From: Vicinamibacterales bacterium
GTDB taxonomy: Bacteria > Acidobacteriota > Vicinamibacteria > Vicinamibacterales > JAMQPK01
Length of the DNA: 64,000 bases
Direction of reading: 5' to 3'
Assembly: GCA_963821395.1 (NCBI GenBank)
Contig: CAWGDY010000034.1
Coordinates: 61,963-125,962 of the forward strand
Below the pieces are notes generated by a model, which did not search any database, was not told the DNA's origin, and saw only the letters and a program-made list of their open reading frames with translations. Positions 3,038 through 58,337 of the stretch are shown piece by piece (within the stretch, counting starts at the first letter, position 1; every line of letters starts with the position of its first letter). The position numbers and the translations under genes were made by a program.

Positions 3038-3495
3038 CCAAGCTGCTGCGGACGATTTTTCTCGTCGACCTGCTGAAGGGGCTGTGGCTCACGTTGAAGT
3101 ACACACCCCAGCCGGCCTTCACGTTCCAGTATCCGGCCGAGCGGCGGCCGGTTGCCCCGCGGTTCCGTGGCGTGCTTCGCCTGCAGGTGGAGCCCGAATC
3201 GGGCGCGCAGACCTGCATCGTGTGCGATCAGTGCGCCAAGGCCTGTCCCGACGACCTCATCGCGCTTGGCGGACACCGCGAGCCCGGGCAGAAGATCAAG
3301 ATCCTCGACTACTTCGACTTCAACCTGTCGCGGTGCAGCTTCTGCGGCCTCTGCTCGGAAGTGTGCCCCACCAAGCCCATCAAGGCGCTCATCATGAGCG
3401 AGGATTACGAATTGGGTACCTACAGCCGCGAGACCCAGATCCTCCGCATCGACGAGATGTACGACGGGGTTCCCATCGAACAGTACACGCGCTAA
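3034..3495 (+). CDS. nuoI: NADH-quinone oxidoreductase subunit I (2x[4Fe-4S])
   Basis: [12 protein letters not shown] and [12 protein letters not shown] motifs. ATG at 3034 overlaps the nuoB stop (ATGA). Confidence 0.85.
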
Positions 3496-3523
3496 CGCGC
3501 GTGTACACCGCGCGTTAGCGCGT
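3487..3523 (+). terminator. perfect 15-bp stem hairpin spanning the nuoI stop codon
   Basis: acgcgctaacgcgcg / tgtacac / cgcgcgttagcgcgt. The TAA at 3493-3495 lies inside the left arm. No U tract follows. Confidence 0.5.
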
Positions 3524-3526
3524 GTA

Positions 3527-3567
3527 GGTTCCAGAGTTCCTGGTCCGGTTCCCGTTCTGGTTCCGAG
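3527..3567. repeat. GGTTCC-family low-complexity array
   Basis: ggttccagagttcctggtccggttcccgttctggttccgag; same unit family as 33022-33180 and 36172-36330. Confidence 0.6.
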
Positions 3568-3671
3568 TAATCCAAGATCGCGGATACACCCGGGCCCGAA
3601 TCAGCTTGCCCGCCCGCCCGCCGACCCCTACAATCCAAGGTAAATCGACTCAGGTCAACCCGAGAGGGGCT

Positions 3672-5198: not shown

Positions 5199-5290
5199 AA
5201 ACAATAACAAGAGAGTAAGAGACTAAGAGAACAGAGGCAGGGGAATTCTGATCAAAAAGAATTCTCCTAGTCTCCTAATCTCTTGTTTGA
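5199..5290. repeat. AT-rich periodic-arm hairpin between convergent genes (AAGAG/CTCCT family)
   Basis: Left arm aacaagagagtaagagactaagag, right arm cctagtctcctaatctcttgtt, with an inner gaattc..gaattc hairpin. Related to 53150-53240. Confidence 0.65.
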
Positions 5291-5763
5291 CTACTGATCC
5301 GCCGTGCGAGATGTTCTTTGCGCCGCGTCTCAGCGGCGGCGTGCTGCGCCTTCTCTTCATCCGTGCTCACCAGGAGCGGCGGCACTTCCTCGCGCTTGCC
5401 GTCGCGTTCGAGCGTGACGAAGGTCAGATACGCGCGGCTCGTCATCTGCCGGCGTCCCGTCAGCGCCTGTTCTGCGTAGACGAGCACTTCGACCTCCAGC
5501 GACGTTCTGAACGTTGCCGTCACGCGCCCCTTCAGCACGATGAAGTCGCCGACTTTGATCGGATTCAGAAATTCGAGGCTGTCGACGGCCGCGGTGACCA
5601 CCAGCGCCCTCGCGTGGCGGAACGCCGTAATCGCCCCCGCGATGTCGATGAGGTGCATCACGGCGCCGCCGAGCATGAACCCCATCGGGTTGGCATCGTT
5701 CGGCAGCACCACCTGCACCATTTCGGTGGCCGATTCCGACGGAGGTTTGGGAGCGGCGGGCAT
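5275..5763 (-). CDS. acyl-CoA thioesterase (hotdog fold, YciA-like)
   Basis: VQVVLPNDANPMGFMLGGAVMHLIDIAGAITAFRH.. is a typical acyl-CoA hydrolase core. Confidence 0.85.
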   Translation of the reverse strand: MPAAPKPPSESATEMVQVVLPNDANPMGFMLGGAVMHLIDIAGAITAFRHARALVVTAAVDSLEFLNPIKVGDFIVLKGRVTATFRTSLEVEVLVYAEQALTGRRQMTSRAYLTFVTLERDGKREEVPPLLVSTDEEKAQHAAAETRRKEHLARRISSQTRD

Positions 5764-6108: not shown

Positions 6109-9100
6109 CAGAAGTCGTAGCCGATCCAGACGGCGAACTTGACCTTGCGGAATTCCTCCTGAGCGGCGGCGCCCAGGATGTACCGCTCGTAGTCTTCGTT
6201 GAACATCGTCCGGTACGACCAGTCGAAATGCACCGGGAAGCCCAGCGCGAACGTTTCGAGCCCGATGCCGTACGACGCGCGGGCGTCGATCAGGCGGAAG
6301 CCGTCGATCCTCTGCGCAGGCCTGATGACGATGCCACCGGCGGTCGTGTCGGGCAGGGAACGTCTTCGTCCCGCTCTCCCACGGTTTGAACGTCTGGCCA
6401 TCGAGGCCCGCCCCGCCGATGTTGAAGAAGAACACGCCGCGGATGCCTCCCAGCACGCCGATCGGTGTGGCCATGGCGTTAATCAGCGGGTAGCGCAGCT
6501 CGGCGTTCCCGTAGAACGCCTTGTGACCGACGAACTGCCGGTAGTCGTAGCCGCGCATCTCGGAGTTGCCGCCGAAGAACATGTAGCCCGGCGAATCGCC
6601 AAAGCTCTTGAAGCCCACGGCACGCAGCGCGAACACGCCGTTGGCGCCGATTCGCGCGTAGTAGCGCGCGTCGGCGTCGATGGTCTGGCGCGACAGCGTG
6701 TTGCCGATCTTCGGCGCGGTTTCGAACGACAGCCGCATCGTGCTGCCCGAGAGCGGTCCGTATTCGCGGAACACGGTCGTCTCCTGGACGAACGAGACGC
6801 CCAGCGGCACCATCATGCCGCTGTTGAAGAGCCTGGTCCCGAACTCTTCTTGCTGATACCGATCGGCTTCGTCCTGAAGCAGCGGGTCGGCGAATTCCTC
6901 GTTGTAGTTGACGAGCCCGCCCGAGAACTCGACGCGGCGATACATGCTGAACGGGTAGATGCCGAACGCCGATCCGCCGCGCACCGTCTGCGTGGCGAGC
7001 GCGTCTTCGCGCCTGATGTACGGCGCCAGCGCCGGATCGTAGAAGTAGCTCGCCAGCTGCCCGTAGAAGAACTGCGTCTGCGAGTAGCCCTGCAGCGCGA
7101 ACTGCATGCGCCGCGACAGGTTGACGTACGAGAACGACAGCGTCTTGTACTGCTGCACCGACGAGGCGTACATGCTGAACTGCTGATCGCCCAGAACGTC
7201 GGTGAACGACACCATCGATCCGCCGAAGATGTCGCCGCCGCTCGTGACGCCGACGTTCACCGGCGGGCGTCCGTCGAGGAACATCTTGTCGAAACGGCCC
7301 TTCTTCGACACGTTCTCGGCGACGAGGGTGTGCTGCAGCGGCGGCTGGAAGTCGGTAATCGGCCCGGGGCTCCCGAAGTCGGCCGACGCGGCCGTGTGCA
7401 GCGGCTCCTTCAGATCGAAGGTGTGCAGGCTGTAGCTGCCTTTGTAGTAGTCGACAAACGCCAGGCGCGGATTGGCGCCGTCTTTCGACAGGACCACGGG
7501 CGAGAGCACGCCGCCGAGCGCGTCGGTGTACTGCCGCAGCTCGCCGGTCTTGAGGCTCAGCGTCCACAGGTTGAAGATGTTCCCGTTACGCGCGATTTCC
7601 GGCGACAGCGGCGTCGTCGGGTCGGTGGCCGTCGAAGAGAAGATGATCGTGTCGGTGTTCAGAAACTTGGCCGCGGCCTCGTCCTGCGTGCCGAAGGTGA
7701 GCTGCGTCTTGGCCCCTGTGTCGACATCCAGGCGGAAGAGCTTCTGCGACCCGCTGATGCGCGCGATATAGACGATGAAGCGGCCGTCGGGCGAGTAGAC
7801 CGGGCCGTAATCGCCGAACTCGTCGTTGGTGAGGTTCGTGACATCGCCGCTCGTGACATCGAGCTTGAAGATGTCGCCAATCGCGTTGCGAAGGCCGCCG
7901 AAGATCACCGAGCGGCCGTCGGGCGAGATGTTGGGCGACTCGGGATTGTCGACGCTCGCCAGGTTGAGACGCTGCTCGATCTTGCCCGTGAGCACGTTCT
8001 GCACGATGAGCGTCTTGTATTTTTCCTGACGGACGAAGTAGGCGAGGCGATCGCCCACGGGCGACCACGACATCCACCCGACCATGTTGCTGAGGCTCGG
8101 GTACGCGAGGTACTCGAATCCGCGGTCCATGTCGAAGCCGGGCGTGAGGTTGCGCACGACCGCACCGTCTTTGGCCGACACGAGAATGATGTCGAGCTCC
8201 TGATCCTTGCGGTTGCCGGTCGTCATCGCGATGAGATCGCCGGACGGGGACGGCTCTATCGAAATCGCGCCCGTATACTGCGAGCGCTCCGGATCCGGAG
8301 ACAGATCCTGTCCGTAGTCGGCCGGCCGCTCTTTGTCGCGGAACGCCTTGAACCGATCCTTCAGATACTTTTCGAACTGCTGGTCGAATTCGCGCGAGCT
8401 GATCTGAAAGGCGTCTTCGTAGGGGCTCGAGCCCCCGCCGATGGCGCTGCGCCGCAGCGAGAAGAGGAACTGCCGCACGCCGTCCTTGCCCCAGCGCGCT
8501 TCGATGAACTCGTAGAGCGCGTGGCCGAGGTTGTACACGAGGCGCGGGTTGTTGAACTCGCCGTAGCCCTCCATCTCGCTCATGCGCGGGATGATGTCGG
8601 CGACGGCGGCGTCGCGCACCGTCATGAGGTCGAGCGGATCCCAGATGCCACGCTCGTACTCGGCGCCGCCCTCGTGTACCCACAGCGGCATGTTGCGGCG
8701 GATGAGCGAGGTCGGGATGATGTCGTACTGGAACACGTGCGTCAGCTCGTGCACGATCAGCCCGTAGAGCAGGTCTGACGGGAGATCGATCGGCAGGACC
8801 ATGCGATGGCGCTCGCCTTCGGCGAAGGCCAGCACGCCTTCGGTCGAGGCGCCGGGCGCGATGTTCTGCTGCTCGAACTCGCTGTGGGTCTTGAAGATGA
8901 TGAGCGGCACGCGCTGGGCGAGGTCGTGCCGCAGGTCGGAGCTGACCTGCTGGTAGGCGCTTTCCGCGTAGCTCGCGACCCGCGCCAGGTGCTGCTCGTT
9001 CTCGGGATAGAAGTAGATTTCGAAGTGGTCCGTCTTGTACGTGTGCCACTCGAACTGGTCGTAGTGAATCTGGTTCTTGCCGTAGTACGGCGCGAACTGG

Positions 9101-12961: not shown

Positions 12962-13687
12962 CTAACGCGCCAGGAAGTGTTTAGGTATCGGCGTCCACGC
13001 GTGGCGACCTTCATAGAAGAGCGGCTTCCGATTGGGATGTCGCTCCTTGAATTCGCGATATCGCCGCCGGAACTCGCGGAATCGTGCGTCCGGCATCCCG
13101 AGCGGCTGGTGCCTGGTGTCGAGCAGCATCCGCTCCACTTTCCACACGTTCCTTCCGGACAGGCGCCAGTCGTAGGCACCCATCACGCGAAGATCGACCA
13201 GCGCGAAGGCCGTGATGCGTCCGGTGAGGTCGACGTACTCGTCGAGGTAGCTGGCGGCCAGCGCCCGCGGCGTCGCGAAGACCGGCTTGCGTCCGTGCAG
13301 CCCCGGGTCGCGCGACCGCGCGACGGAGCCCCAGCAAACATCGTCGATCATCGATCGGCGATCGTCCATCGTCTGGGGCGCCGACGATGGACGATGGACG
13401 ATGGACGATGGACGATGTTGGTACACGAAAATCACGTGGTCGAGCTCGTCGATCGATTCGAAGCTGATGACGAGCGGCGGATACCCGTGCTGCTCGAGCA
13501 CCGTTGCCGCAAACAGCGCCGCCTCGAGGCAATGCGCCGTCCGATGACGGACGACGCCGCGGAAGCTGCGCAGCGTCGCGCGACCGGGTGGCGGCTCCGT
13601 GTTGTAGGGGAGCGCGTTGAGGTAGCGCTGGACGGCCAGCGGCGTCCGCAGCCTGGCGACGAGCCGACGCTCGGCGCGTGATGTCAG
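12962..13687 (-). CDS. conserved hypothetical, possible papain/transglutaminase-like thiol enzyme (AHCLEAA motif), carrying an in-frame palindromic insertion
   Basis: The frame stays open from the SCO1 stop: (L)TSRAERRLVARLRTPLAVQRYLNALPYNTE..RTAHCLEAALFAATVLEQHGYPPLV.. No ATG/GTG/TTG occurs before 13501; CTG at 13687 is the best start candidate. Family assignment is tentative. Confidence 0.45.
   Translation of the reverse strand: MTSRAERRLVARLRTPLAVQRYLNALPYNTEPPPGRATLRSFRGVVRHRTAHCLEAALFAATVLEQHGYPPLVISFESIDELDHVIFVYQHRPSSIVHRPSSAPQTMDDRRSMIDDVCWGSVARSRDPGLHGRKPVFATPRALAASYLDEYVDLTGRITAFALVDLRVMGAYDWRLSGRNVWKVERMLLDTRHQPLGMPDARFREFRRRYREFKERHPNRKPLFYEGRHAWTPIPKHFLAR
13337..13420. repeat. 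intragenic imperfect palindrome (GATGGAC tandem arm), 84 nt, in frame
   Basis: acatcgtcgatcatcgatcggcgatcgtccatcgtc / tggggcgcc / gacgatggacgatggacgatggacgatggacgatgt. It encodes ..QHRPSSIVHRPSSAPQTMDDRRSMIDDV.. inside the ORF. Confidence 0.7.
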
Positions 13688-55391: not shown

Positions 55392-55859
55392 CTACCACAA
55401 CGAGCGCGGCCCGGTGGCTTGTTCCAGCTCGAGCAGGAACCGCTTGCGTTCGAGTCCGCCACCGTAGCCCACGAGCGTGCCATTGCTGCCGATGACGCGG
55501 TGGCACGGCACGATGATGCTGATCGGGTTGCGGCCGTTGGCTGCGCCCACGGCCCGCATCGCCGATCGCTTGCCGATCGCATCCGCGAGCTGACTGTAGC
55601 TGCGGGTCTCGCCGTAGGGGATGGTCTGGAGCTCGCTCCACACACGCTGCTGAAACGTCGTGCCCACAGGCGCGATCGGAACGGTGAAGACCGTCCGCTT
55701 TCGTGCGAAGTATTCCTCCAACTCGTGGACGACGTCTTCGAACCCTGCGCTGGCCTGTGCCCCGAGCTGCTCTGTTCGCAGATCGGGATGGCCCATATAC
55801 AGGCCGCTGAGCACGCCGTCATTCTTCACGAGCGTCAGCGTTCCAATCGGCGATTCCAT
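55392..55859 (-). CDS. ogt: methylated-DNA--protein-cysteine methyltransferase
   Basis: IPYGETRSYSQLA..AVGAANGRNPISIIVPCHRVIGSNG (PCHRV active site). ATG at 55859 inside ORF 55392..56954. Confidence 0.9.
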   Translation of the reverse strand: MESPIGTLTLVKNDGVLSGLYMGHPDLRTEQLGAQASAGFEDVVHELEEYFARKRTVFTVPIAPVGTTFQQRVWSELQTIPYGETRSYSQLADAIGKRSAMRAVGAANGRNPISIIVPCHRVIGSNGTLVGYGGGLERKRFLLELEQATGPRSLW

Positions 55860-55879
55860 CAGGAAGTGACCTGGCACGA

Positions 55880-57499
55880 TCAGGCGACGGCTTCGGGTAA
55901 TGGACGCGCCCGCGCTTCCGGCGGCAGCTCCACGTACGCGCGTTCGCGGCGCCGCGCCTGTTGGAACCGTTCGAAGACGTTGCGCTGCGCCTCGAGCCCG
56001 ATCATGGATCGCAGGGTGGTTCCGGCAAAAACGTACCTGGTCATCTCGGGCCAATGCCGCAGCACGAACGATGGGCTGTGCAGGAATGCGGCGGGCAGGT
56101 GCTTCAGCTTCATCCACCGTTCCGCGCGCCATCGCATGAACTCCACCTCGGTCGCCGGCACATGTTTCGTGCGAACGACGGCGGTCGTCCCATCGTAGTG
56201 CGACATGTCTTCGTCGACGATCAGGCGGTCCTGGCGGAATTGCTGCGTCATGGGCGTGCGCGGATAGGGCGTCGGGTGCTGAATGTACGGCCAGTCCACG
56301 TACTGCCGGGCGAACTCGAGATTCGTCTCGATCGATTCGCGCGTGTCGTCGGGGTTGCCCACGATGAGCCCGCCGACGACGAAGAGGCCGTGACGATGGA
56401 GATGATCGATGGCTTCGATGGTGGCGTTCCCGCCTTGCCCGAGCCCGTGGCGCGCATTCTTCGCCCGTGCCTTGAGAAAATCGAGATCGCTCTCGAGGAT
56501 GTTCTCGATGCCAAGGAAGACGTACCGGAACCCCGCCCGCTTCATGAGCGGCGCGAGCGTCGCGCCGTGCTGCGCCAGGGGCGAGGTCATGGCCTGCACG
56601 AAATACTCGATGTCGTTCAGGCCGGCGTCGATAATCGCCTGACACAACAGTTCGAAACGCCGGATGTCGAGCGTGATGTTGTCGTCGACGAGGAAAATCG
56701 CCCGCGCACCGTGGTTGCGGGCGTCGGTAATGTCGGCGAGCACGCGATCGATGGAATAGACGTGAAAGTTGCGGCCGCGCATCTCGATGATGGAGCAGAA
56801 GCTGCAATCGTAGGTGCAGCCGCGCGACGTTTCCACGACATCCACCTGGCGGCCGAGCAGCGTGTAGCCCTCGAGGACTCGAGCCGCCCTGTTGGGAAGC
56901 CGCAACGGATCTGATTTCAGGTTCGTGATGGCCCTTTCCGGCCCGTGAACCCATCGGCCGGTGAGTGGCGGGTCTTGAAGTGCAAGACCCGCCCTACGTT
57001 CGCCGTGACTCGAGTAGGGCGGGTCTTGCTTTCCAAGACCCGCCATGCAGCGGCTCGAGAGCCCCGCGATTGACGGCAGGGGCCCGCCGGCTTCCAGTGC
57101 GCGCAGTAGATCGCAAAATGTCTGTTCGCCTTCGCCGCGGACCAGGAAATCCACGTCGTCGCACGATTCGTAGGCCGCCGGCGCGAGGCTGGGATCGTAC
57201 CCGCCCACCACAATCCGTGTCGCGGGGCTGAGGTGTTTGACGAGCCGGGCAATCTTGAAGGCGGTCGCCCGCTGAAACGTCATCACGGACATGCCGACGA
57301 CATCGGGCTGGTGCTCGCGCATCAACCGCTCGACGGTGGACACGACCCGGGACTGCGCGAGGATCAGATCGGCGATCGCGACTCGATGATGCGGGTCGAG
57401 ATTTCCGGCGATCGACGACAGCGCGCCGTTGGGCATGCGCACCACCATCGATGGCATGTGCTCGAAGGAATCGGGCATCGAGAGGAGGAGGATATTCAT
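55880..57499 (-). CDS. B12-binding-domain radical SAM protein carrying an in-frame 78-nt palindromic insertion
   Basis: N-terminal cobalamin-binding-like fold (DVVGMSVMTF..VVGGY), radical SAM CTYDCSFCS. The inserted peptide ..MAGLGKQDPPYSSHGERRAGLALQDPP.. lies between the two domains. Confidence 0.85.
   Translation of the reverse strand: MNILLLSMPDSFEHMPSMVVRMPNGALSSIAGNLDPHHRVAIADLILAQSRVVSTVERLMREHQPDVVGMSVMTFQRATAFKIARLVKHLSPATRIVVGGYDPSLAPAAYESCDDVDFLVRGEGEQTFCDLLRALEAGGPLPSIAGLSSRCMAGLGKQDPPYSSHGERRAGLALQDPPLTGRWVHGPERAITNLKSDPLRLPNRAARVLEGYTLLGRQVDVVETSRGCTYDCSFCSIIEMRGRNFHVYSIDRVLADITDARNHGARAIFLVDDNITLDIRRFELLCQAIIDAGLNDIEYFVQAMTSPLAQHGATLAPLMKRAGFRYVFLGIENILESDLDFLKARAKNARHGLGQGGNATIEAIDHLHRHGLFVVGGLIVGNPDDTRESIETNLEFARQYVDWPYIQHPTPYPRTPMTQQFRQDRLIVDEDMSHYDGTTAVVRTKHVPATEVEFMRWRAERWMKLKHLPAAFLHSPSFVLRHWPEMTRYVFAGTTLRSMIGLEAQRNVFERFQQARRRERAYVELPPEARARPLPEAVA
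56967..57044. repeat. intragenic double-hairpin palindromic element (78 nt, in frame)
   Basis: GGCGGGTCTTG-aagtg-CAAGACCCGCC CTAC gttcgccgtgactcga GTAG GGCGGGTCTTG-ctttc-CAAGACCCGCC. Confidence 0.8.
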
Positions 57500-57524
57500 G
57501 CGCGTTCGCGCCTCCTTGCAGATA

Positions 57525-58337
57525 CTAGCGCTTCGAGTCCGGCCAGGCCGGGCTGGTGAGCTCGATCCGCCAGATCGGCCCGCCGTAAAACAGAGGGCCT
57601 TCAGATTTCACGAACGCCGGTGCGGGGCCCTCGAGAATCCAGATGTGCGTATCGGGCGGCTGCTTGCCGACCAGCGGCGCCAGGAATCCGGCGAGGCCTC
57701 CGATCTCGGCCTTGAGGACATAGTGTGTGGCGCGGCGGCTGGAACCTGCAATCGAAAACGACTCGGCTCCCGCATCGGTGATCGCCAGCTTCACCGGGCG
57801 AGGATCCGGAGTAGCTGCCACGAACGATGCGCTGGCTGCAGTCGTTTTGGCGCCGAGGTTCTTCAGCACCGGGATGACCATGCCGTTGGCGACATCGGGC
57901 GCCAGGTCGAGCTTGCTGTTCTCGACTTCGTCTTCGTCGCCTTTCTCGCGGTGGCGCACCACCACCTGGCCGGTCTCCGTATTCATCGTCATGTCGAGCG
58001 TCCAGCGGAATGACGGTCCACGCTGCACCAGGTGATAGCTCACAAGACGAAGCACGTCGTTCTGGGAGAATACGGTGGTCTCGTCATGCAGCGAACCGTC
58101 CGAGAAACGGAAGATCACCTGGCTGGTGACGCGCCCGCCGCGAACGTTCTGAATCAGATCGCCGCTGGCCAGGGTCTTGCCGTCGAGGCCCTTGAGGACG
58201 AGGAACCCGTGGGCGAGACCTTCGGGGAAACGCACGGCAACGGGTTCGGCGCGCAGGAACGCCTGACAGGCCACTAACAGGCACATCACCCATCGCGCGC
58301 GCGACACAAATCTCCGCCGCATGGTCCCTCGTGGCAT
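57525..58337 (-). CDS. hypothetical secreted protein
   Basis: Signal RARWVMCLLVACQAFLRA/EP; 270 aa with good coding composition; no family recognised. Confidence 0.6.
   Translation of the reverse strand: MPRGTMRRRFVSRARWVMCLLVACQAFLRAEPVAVRFPEGLAHGFLVLKGLDGKTLASGDLIQNVRGGRVTSQVIFRFSDGSLHDETTVFSQNDVLRLVSYHLVQRGPSFRWTLDMTMNTETGQVVVRHREKGDEDEVENSKLDLAPDVANGMVIPVLKNLGAKTTAASASFVAATPDPRPVKLAITDAGAESFSIAGSSRRATHYVLKAEIGGLAGFLAPLVGKQPPDTHIWILEGPAPAFVKSEGPLFYGGPIWRIELTSPAWPDSKR

Follow-up and report, generated by a model that had tools for sequence, protein, structure and literature searches.

The subject of this report is a 64-kb window (the whole stretch analysed) of a Vicinamibacterales contig, CAWGDY010000034.1, and within it a B12-binding/radical-SAM gene whose interdomain linker carries two perfect DNA hairpins. 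We interpret the hairpins as two head-to-head units of a dispersed, GTAG-tagged family of the repetitive extragenic palindromic (REP) type in Vicinamibacterales, translated in frame as a passenger loop of the enzyme, and we assign a probability of roughly 80% to this identification taken as a whole. The host gene is intact, as judged from its open reading frame (ORF) of 539 amino acids (aa), its Pfam domains, its homologues and its synteny, and the linker was delimited by alignments, a linker census and an AlphaFold2 (AF2) model. The features are as follows.

55880..57499, minus strand: B12-binding/radical-SAM host gene, intact
56954..57049, minus strand: expanded linker, C151-R182, 32 aa
57014..57048, no strand: REP1, 35-bp unit, GTAG-GGCGGGTCTTG-CTTTC-CAAGACCCGCC-atgc, outer end decayed
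56998..57013, no strand: spacer, 16 nt, TCGAGTCACGGCGAAC in gene sense, its first 5 nt (TCGAG) shared with relatives
56963..56997, no strand: REP2, 35-bp unit, gagt-GGCGGGTCTTG-AAGTG-CAAGACCCGCC-CTAC, outer end decayed

The hairpins, GGCGGGTCTTG-AAGTG-CAAGACCCGCC at 56967-56993 and GGCGGGTCTTG-CTTTC-CAAGACCCGCC at 57018-57044, each have a perfect stem of 11 bp and a loop of 5 nt. They are separated by CTAC-gttcgccgtgactcga-GTAG (56994-57017), the whole spanning 78 nt with a period of 51 nt. These two matches are the only ones in the 64 kb, even when 3 mismatches are allowed, while shuffled sequences lead one to expect 0.00. Folding of the 111-nt region yields -76.4 kcal/mol as RNA (z = -10.6 vs shuffled) and -47.4 kcal/mol as DNA (z = -11.7), and because each unit is itself palindromic, either two hairpins or a single long one can form. 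CTAC and GTAG had been described in a preliminary, sequence-only description of the locus as flanking the hairpins; the tetranucleotides are real, as ends of the units, but survive on the inner side only (CTAC at 56994-56997 and GTAG at 57014-57017), the outer ends having decayed to GAGT and ATGC. Since each hairpin keeps its inner tetranucleotide alone, the pair is a head-to-head dimer. An intrinsic terminator or a known structured RNA was considered and rejected: no T-run (U-tract) follows either hairpin on either strand, and an Rfam scan of 56500-57500 returned no family above its gathering score, the sub-threshold matches (eukaryotic miRNA-precursor and sRNA models) being set aside as generic long hairpins.

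The ORF reads through the element as MAGLGKQDPPYSSHGERRAGLALQDPP, REP1 being translated as (C)MAGLGKQDPPY and REP2 as RRAGLALQDPPL. Two 11-bp-stem hairpins at 56967-57044 within an intact B12-radical SAM ORF, together with the peptide quoted for them, are thus present as the preliminary description had them, and their placement between the two domains is equally correct: Pfam assigns B12-binding to residues 27-131 (7.2e-15) and Radical_SAM to residues 222-397 (4e-15), and the linker carrying the repeats (residues ~151-182) lies between the two. This linker measures 32 aa in the window vs 4 in insert-free orthologues, a net gain of 28 codons that places the inserted DNA at about 56963-57048. 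The length of 26 codons given earlier needs adjustment, because the 78 nt are offset from the codon boundaries and the peptide they touch has 27 residues; that the element is in frame and free of stops holds. In the AF2 model, which is of moderate quality (mean pLDDT, the per-residue confidence score, 62; 20-sequence alignment) and from which only the coil state and low confidence of the insert were taken, residues 153-180 form a coil with pLDDT <50 between strands 147-150 and 183-185.

A GTAG-tagged palindrome dispersed in Vicinamibacterales

Searched as an exact sequence in one genome per prokaryotic species, the hairpin was present in 96 stretches, nearly all of them in metagenome-assembled genomes (MAGs) labelled Vicinamibacterales (Acidobacteriota). 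About half of the listed loci come from one MAG, MFD02360.bin.1.271. Among the genomes with an exact copy is the MAG that encodes P0002, a 93%-identical orthologue of the host enzyme, hairpin and gene both being on contig_28502. Aligning and profiling the flanks of the 97 copies in these stretches revealed a sharp edge (G.88, T.80, A.86 and G.86 at positions -4 to -1, near-random farther out), which defines the unit as a 35-bp palindrome, GTAG-GGCGGGTCTTG-N5-CAAGACCCGCC-CTAC, with the consensus GTAGGGCGGGTCTTG-N5-CAAGACCCGCCCTAC. GTAG is found on the left of 74 of the 97 copies and its complement, CTAC, on the right of 62; 48 copies have both ends and 9 have neither. The loops are variable, CAGTT/AACTG accounting for 34 copies and CACTT/AAGTG for 9. 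In REP2 of the window, 33 nt, loop and CTACGT included, are 100% identical to copies in two of the stretches (L059 and L081). Neither target-site duplications nor direct repeats are visible at the flanks of the 97 copies, and a candidate duplication at REP2, formed by CACGGCGA and CACCGGCCGA, was rejected as evidence, being imperfect and matched by none in the family.

Complete hairpins would account for ~200 arms, and 251 were counted, many copies being nested or accompanied by solo arms. Often, copies nest in the pattern arm-spacer-arm-loop-arm-spacer-arm, to a depth of up to three, or have one additional solo arm on one side (L079 3100-3200, L003 6490-6590 and L099 1510-1640, the last in the gene for the orthologue P0007, among many others). 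Family members are mostly singletons or nested rather than doublets of fixed spacing, and two exact hairpins share a stretch in only one case out of 96 (L046), at a distance of 365 nt. The 16-nt spacer of the window has no counterpart beside any other family copy, so the 78-nt doublet is not itself a repeated element. This changes the preliminary description, which had treated the 78-nt double hairpin as the element: the unit is the 35-bp palindrome, and the window holds two such units with different histories. Once the unit is redefined in this way, the earlier reading is essentially right, if only in part supported; of the two outcomes that it named as refuting, neither was seen, since most orthologues lack the peptide and the hairpin is dispersed in related genomes, in coding and in intergenic locations.

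To separate the two locations, 99 hairpins were screened for spanning ORFs with coding-like codon-position GC, and the candidates were checked against Pfam. About 10 of the 99 are coding; no coding-like ORF spans the others (~90% intergenic). At least eight loci besides the window have in-frame intragenic copies, mostly in linkers, and the coding copies always lie in an open frame. They include the following.

ABC transporter, between ABC_membrane and ABC_tran, read as RAGLxxQDPP
DnaE, between HHH_6 and the OB fold, read as RAGLxxQDPP
DPP-IV, two MAGs, same position, read as RAGLxxQDPP
TolC-like OEP, between its two repeats, read as RAGLxxQDPP
Peptidase M49, at the N-terminus after the signal peptide, read as RAGLxxQDPP; the least certain case
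Sugar-kinase-like protein, between SBD_N and NBD_C, read as GRVLxxKTRP
GT4 glycosyltransferase, in-frame copy, read as GRVLxxKTRP

None of the intragenic copies uses the third reading frame, which includes the TAG of GTAG. In L046 (3457-3483 and 3822-3848), two convergent genes take their last codons and stop region from REPs; the first of these ORFs ends in ..VGRVL and the other, transketolase-like, in ..GRVLSK. The small gene between these two hairpins was considered as a transposase and rejected; its Cys/His motifs, inspected by themselves and not by a Pfam scan, give it the look of a Rieske-type ferredoxin.

A conserved dimer of another composition was also seen, in which a variant hairpin (GCCGGGTCT..AGACCCGGC) is followed by CTAC-spacer-GTAG and a standard hairpin. 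It is kept in four MAGs (L017 ~6510-6600, L042 ~6390-6480, L043 ~2260-2350 and L085 ~5250-5340), each time upstream of one same gene (..AATGGATACGGTCAAGGTCAC), and has the inner-head layout of the window doublet. One MAG carrying the repeat, CAYHHH01 (L007, L014, L015, L037, L042, L056, L064 and L065), is labelled 'uncultured Bifidobacteriaceae'. L037, one of its loci, and L012 of a Vicinamibacterales MAG are collinear and nearly identical in their flanks; probably either the binning or the name given to the MAG is in error.

The insertion site and its history

The ancestral site was empty. A protein search with the host enzyme returned 6970 homologues, the best of them 94% identical, and in ~100 of the 120 best homologues the insertion site is a beta-hairpin turn of 4 residues (R-xxxG-W). 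A metagenome scan with the same protein contributed 80 orthologues, none above 81% identity; none of these 80 has a REP at the turn, and among the 47 that were parsed, 45 have the 4-aa turn and the other two 5-6 residues. Occupied sites are found closer to the window. The five closest orthologues, P0001-P0005, 94-97% identical to it in protein and 92-97% in nucleotide sequence, have one unit at the same codon, as does P0006 (~80% nucleotide identity). The unit of P0001-P0005 has the same loop as the window's copy at 57018 (GGAAAG in gene sense) and decayed stems, the folding energy of the REP1 hairpin being -22.7 kcal/mol in the window vs -9.1 to -18.6 in the relatives. At this turn P0007 carries, in frame, a nest of three units, and P0009 (..RGGLALQDPP..) and P0036 (..AGLEEQDAP..) have REP-like peptides there, known at the peptide level only. 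The states of the site form a series: empty, one decayed unit (P0001-P0006), two units (the window) and three nested units (P0007). The clean gap of ~26 aa predicted for orthologues in the preliminary description thus turns out to be a series of 0, 1, 2 or nested copies.

Bootstrapped trees built from identity distances without the insert unite the window with P0001-P0005 (100%), P0036 with P0012, which has 5 aa at the turn (99.5%), and P0009 with P0013, P0018 and P0021, which have 3-7 aa (100%); monophyly of all insert-bearers receives 0%. As the insert-bearers are not monophyletic, the turn is a site of repeated insertion. It was probably hit several times independently, one gain followed by many losses being less parsimonious, and would be either one of very few permissive sites in the enzyme or else a preferred target. 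The two closest empty sites, TCGGGCGGATGG and CAGGGCGGCTGG, resemble the repeat arm and are at the same time plain Gly-Gly codons. Expansions of 10-20 aa that do not look like REPs, such as ALQGRQGRQERQGPHRAVR and CPASGPAPGARPDERQRAAA, are seen at the same turn in P0046, P0103, P0078, P0099 and P0115, which indicates that the turn tolerates length variation in general.

The comparison orders the two units of the window in time. REP1 would be the older copy, common to P0001-P0005 and probably present in P0006 as well. REP2 is seen only in the window's lineage (+51 nt) and is missing from all five close relatives; we favour its gain in the window lineage over its loss in the relatives because this unit is in pristine condition and has identical counterparts elsewhere in the family.

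Constraint on the inserted peptide is relaxed. The REP1 peptide is a different one in each close relative (MAGLGKQDPPY, VAGLGKQSPSY, MAVLGKGSPPY, TAGFGKQSPLY, TAGLRNQDPPY, MTGPGKQSPAC) in proteins that are otherwise 94-97% identical, and 4-7 of the 35 nt of REP1 differ, as against 3-8% over the rest of the gene. The stems of P0001, P0002, P0005 and P0006 have decayed without compensation (about -9 to -12.6 kcal/mol), while that of P0003 has one compensatory pair change plus G-U pairs. Conservation of the frame in all insert-bearing relatives argues for translation through the element. Taken with the model, these data point to a passenger, a predicted disordered loop rich in Gly, Pro and Asp that would have no function of its own. 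The 3' arm of REP1, compared in an alignment of 57018-57044 with L097, L102, L103, L104 and L105, reads CAAGACC in the window and P0004, CAAAGCC in P0001, P0003 and P0005, and GGGAGCC in P0002. This distribution of GA and AG conflicts with the pairing of P0004 and P0005 (91% bootstrap) and suggests either that a perfect stem was restored, by templated correction or conversion, or that lineages recombined.

Routes of spread and alternative explanations

Spread of the family within the genome would place most copies in intergenic DNA. One that lands within a gene would survive only where the net length change is a multiple of three, where a stop-free frame is available (..RAGLxxQDPPY.. or ..VGRVLxxKTRPT..), and where the site is a surface loop or an interdomain linker. 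In the case at hand, one unit would have entered the 4-residue beta-turn in the ancestor of the window and P0001-P0005, a second would have come to lie 16 nt from the first in the window lineage, and transcription and translation of both would yield a passenger peptide. Intramolecular templated correction, or conversion from copies elsewhere, may maintain or re-establish perfect stems. GTAG REPs have been hypothesised to be mobilised by REP-associated tyrosine transposases (RAYTs, TnpA-REP) acting on single-stranded hairpins (PMC3733652, PMC8266576), although CGTC REPs and some GTAG-bearing species also occur without a RAYT (PMC3733652). The Vicinamibacterales units may have spread by such a single-strand, hairpin-dependent route; we entertain a RAYT-type mechanism tentatively, at somewhat less than even odds. 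The distribution of the copies suggests that the repeat is mobile or selfish.

Several observations weigh against this account. The 51 extra nt of the window relative to P0001-P0005 do not correspond to a clean 35-nt unit, and no single simple indel explains them. A neighbour-joining tree of the nucleotide sequences of the six close genes does not resolve, its site patterns being in conflict, and the protein bootstraps give 31% for P0001-P0005 without the window and 26% for the window with P0001 and P0002. Both stems are perfect in the window and all relatives have decayed ones, which could reflect a recent origin, correction or a degree of selection for the hairpin. In its 64 kb, the window has one family locus, and abundance of the family is shown for its relatives. 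Finally, no RAYT/Y1 transposase was found in 0.82 Mb of sequence, made up of the window and the 8 kb surrounding each of 96 copies, with a crude probe comprising tblastn with an E. coli YafM sequence (best match 24 bits) and a regular expression for HUH...Y.

Other explanations were weighed. According to one, which we consider unlikely, the mobile unit is a doublet of 78-86 nt, two inverted REPs plus a spacer as in a REPIN (a REP doublet that replicates as one unit), which entered once and of which the relatives lost half. The two units are head-to-head, as REPINs and most GTAG REP dimers are (PMC3733652), and the doublet can form one long hairpin. If the window is sister to P0001-P0005, as in the grouping with 31% support, a single loss suffices, and the P0009 peptide resembles a decayed first unit followed by RGGLALQDPP, with loop residues as in REP2 of the window, a resemblance that exists at the peptide level only. 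However, the spacer accompanies no other family copy, singletons and nested copies make up most of the family, the loops of the two units are unlike (GAAAG vs CACTT), and no single 51-nt deletion turns the window sequence into that of the relatives.

Just as unlikely, in our estimate, is that new copies arise not by a transposase but by template switching or gene conversion, seeded at microhomologies to the arm (GGGCGG) or in hairpin loops. The two closest empty sites, TCGGGCGGATGG and CAGGGCGGCTGG, share 6-7 nt with the arm (G)TAGGGCGGG; but GGC GGN are also the Gly-Gly codons of the turn, so that the microhomology may be chance, and most intergenic copies have no such flank. The frequency of nested copies and solo arms, including the triple nest of P0007, would be accounted for, as would the hits on one turn in several lineages, but selection on tolerated sites can by itself explain the recurrence. 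The failure to detect a RAYT agrees with this idea only as far as the weak search allows, and the GA/AG incongruence with the pairing of P0004 and P0005 is what restoration of perfect stems would produce. In view of the nesting and the solo arms, a templated route without a transposase is to be taken seriously; it would combine nesting aimed at loops, seeding at microhomologies and quasipalindrome correction, a known mutational process. That no RAYT moves the repeat at all, and that it propagates instead by templating driven by hairpins and directed at the loops of existing ones and at arm-like microhomologies (GGGCGG), appears less probable still. If it were true, it would explain nested palindromes, solo arms, repeated hits on the turn and restored stems in coding copies, and Acidobacteria would exemplify the making and growth of palindromic repeats independently of a transposase, with the addition of protein loops as a further outcome.

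It is improbable that the hairpins are a selected cis-acting RNA or DNA structure, such as a translational pause, an mRNA stability element or a protein-binding site. The region folds very stably, both window stems are perfect, and the compensatory and G-U pairs of P0003 would fit, as would the roles in mRNA stability and termination proposed for REPs. Against this stand the uncompensated decay in four relatives (P0001, P0002, P0005 and P0006), the lack of any hairpin in most orthologues, and the lack of a T-tract and of an Rfam match above threshold at the locus. We disfavour even more clearly, as highly improbable, a functional protein motif RAGLxxQDPP of which the palindrome is a by-product: the same peptide does recur in at least six unrelated proteins, but the same DNA is mostly intergenic and has, in another frame, the reading GRVLxxKTRP as well, while close orthologues are hypervariable in the peptide, for which disorder is predicted. 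An assembly or sequencing artefact is the least credible option of all; palindromes can arise in this way and the exact window protein is absent from the protein collection searched (best match 94%), but orthologous copies lie at the same codon in six independent assemblies, frame and domain order are intact, and 97 further copies come from other assemblies.

Known repeat systems and neighbouring sequences

The interpretation as a translated REP places the family next to well-described repeats. GTAG and CGTC REP families have been catalogued across prokaryotes, and REPs lying wholly within ORFs were found in several species and phyla (Di Nocera, De Gregorio and Rocco 2013, BMC Genomics 14:522, PMC3733652). 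Intragenic REPs are most numerous in Opitutus terrae for the GTAG type and in R. conorii for the CGTC type, the latter corresponding to RPE-4/6 (Rickettsia palindromic elements); more than half are dimers or groups encoding 20-30 aa, with DnaE among the targets and flexible linkers suggested as their location (PMC3733652). The present family shares with GTAG REPs a short palindromic unit (20-40 bp), a conserved GTAG end, and dispersed, mainly intergenic copies in the form of singletons, dimers and clusters, many of them in the related MAGs as compared with one locus in the window's 64 kb; it also shares the minority of copies in ORFs of known proteins, often in linkers and including a DnaE, and the ends that supply stops or C-termini, as in L046 (PMC3733652). 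In contrast to those REPs, its stem is 11 bp long (15 with GTAG/CTAC) rather than mostly 6-9 bp, its unit is perfect and, in half of the copies, double-headed (GTAG at one end, CTAC at the other), nesting is common (the searchable text of PMC3733652 has no 'nested'), and our probe detected no associated RAYT.

RPEs, reportedly described by Ogata and colleagues in 2000, resemble the family in that a palindrome occurs in frame within the genes of many unrelated proteins, adding a segment at the surface that the host protein tolerates. RPE-1 is ~100-150 bp long (vs 35 bp here), and RPEs differ in sequence, phylum and base composition; the resemblance is functional and not one of family membership. 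RPE-4 and RPE-6 have been equated with CGTC REPs (PMC3733652), whereas the Vicinamibacterales unit carries GTAG. The parallel drawn in the preliminary description with a selfish Rickettsia palindrome therefore stands for the in-frame, tolerated repeat, although the nearest precedent is the intragenic GTAG REP; an independent case in an unrelated genome is less exceptional than it seemed, given the intragenic REPs of several phyla (PMC3733652), and selfishness is suggested by the distribution of copies only.

The inverted pair of REPs with a short spacer, its potential to form one long hairpin and the GTAG-type head also recall REPIN-RAYT systems (Bertels and Rainey 2011, PMC3116915; Nunvar et al. 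2010, PMC2817692). The unique spacer, the predominance of singletons and nested copies and the failure to find a RAYT in the window and the 8-kb surroundings set the family apart from them, and the presence of two hairpins in 1 of 96 stretches, 365 nt apart, speaks against a doublet that replicates as a REPIN. Small non-autonomous repeats sometimes tolerated in ORFs are likewise known among transposable elements of the miniature inverted-repeat type (MITEs), for example Correia/NEMIS of Neisseria and the enterobacterial ERIC. MITEs are 70-300 bp long and have terminal inverted repeats and target-site duplications; a MITE was rejected here, the 35-bp unit being wholly palindromic and its flanks free of duplications and direct repeats.

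The feature is a new family and a new host for a known phenomenon, and the general picture is unchanged, since in-frame REPs and RPEs are established. The searchable text of PMC3733652 contains no Vicinamibacterales host and no GGCGGG, CCCGCC or GTAGGG, the consensus sequences of its Figure 1 lying outside this comparison, and a literature search on palindromic repeats in Vicinamibacterales yielded nothing except mentions of CRISPR. What is added is an uncatalogued REP family from an abundant, almost uncultured soil order, with about one copy in ten translated in housekeeping proteins. The graded states of the turn constitute a natural experiment on the tolerance of proteins for repeat-derived loops and on the growth of palindromic repeats; its less ordinary aspects (recurrent hits on the beta-turn, in-frame nested growth and a possible transposase-independent spread) are not established. 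On the practical side, inserts of this sort in these MAGs can lead gene callers, predictions of domain boundaries and alignments astray.

Short arrays in which units of 7-8 nt repeat in tandem (e.g. TAATCCC, CAGATTGG and CTACTTC) adjoin REP hairpins in L027, L028, L056, L058, L062, L081 and L092 and, by eye, also in L053, L063, L072, L074, L076, L077 and L090. At a strict threshold they accompany 7 of 99 copies vs 5 of 485 random positions, and REP and array may together form composite intergenic elements. Two other intergenic hairpins of the window, at 3483-3570 and 13359-13440, have a similar look of a hairpin plus a 7-nt tandem array. One of them has an 18-bp stem (GTACACGCGCTAACGCGCG/CGCGCGTTAGCGCGTGTAG) followed by GTTCC-rich repeats and the other a 14-bp stem made of (GATGGAC)n repeats; neither stem recurs in the loci compared here.

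The surroundings of the host gene are kept in its relatives. A three-gene arrangement, conserved between the window (55392-58337) and loci L097-L105, runs from an unknown gene of 265 aa through the radical-SAM gene to a gene for an MGMT-like methyltransferase. The upstream neighbour is a protein of 254-283 aa without a Pfam match across these loci. The radical-SAM enzyme itself is labelled YgiQ-like or BchE-like in the source annotations. The methyltransferase (Methyltransf_1N plus DNA_binding_1) follows directly downstream, and the stop and start codons of the two genes sometimes overlap.

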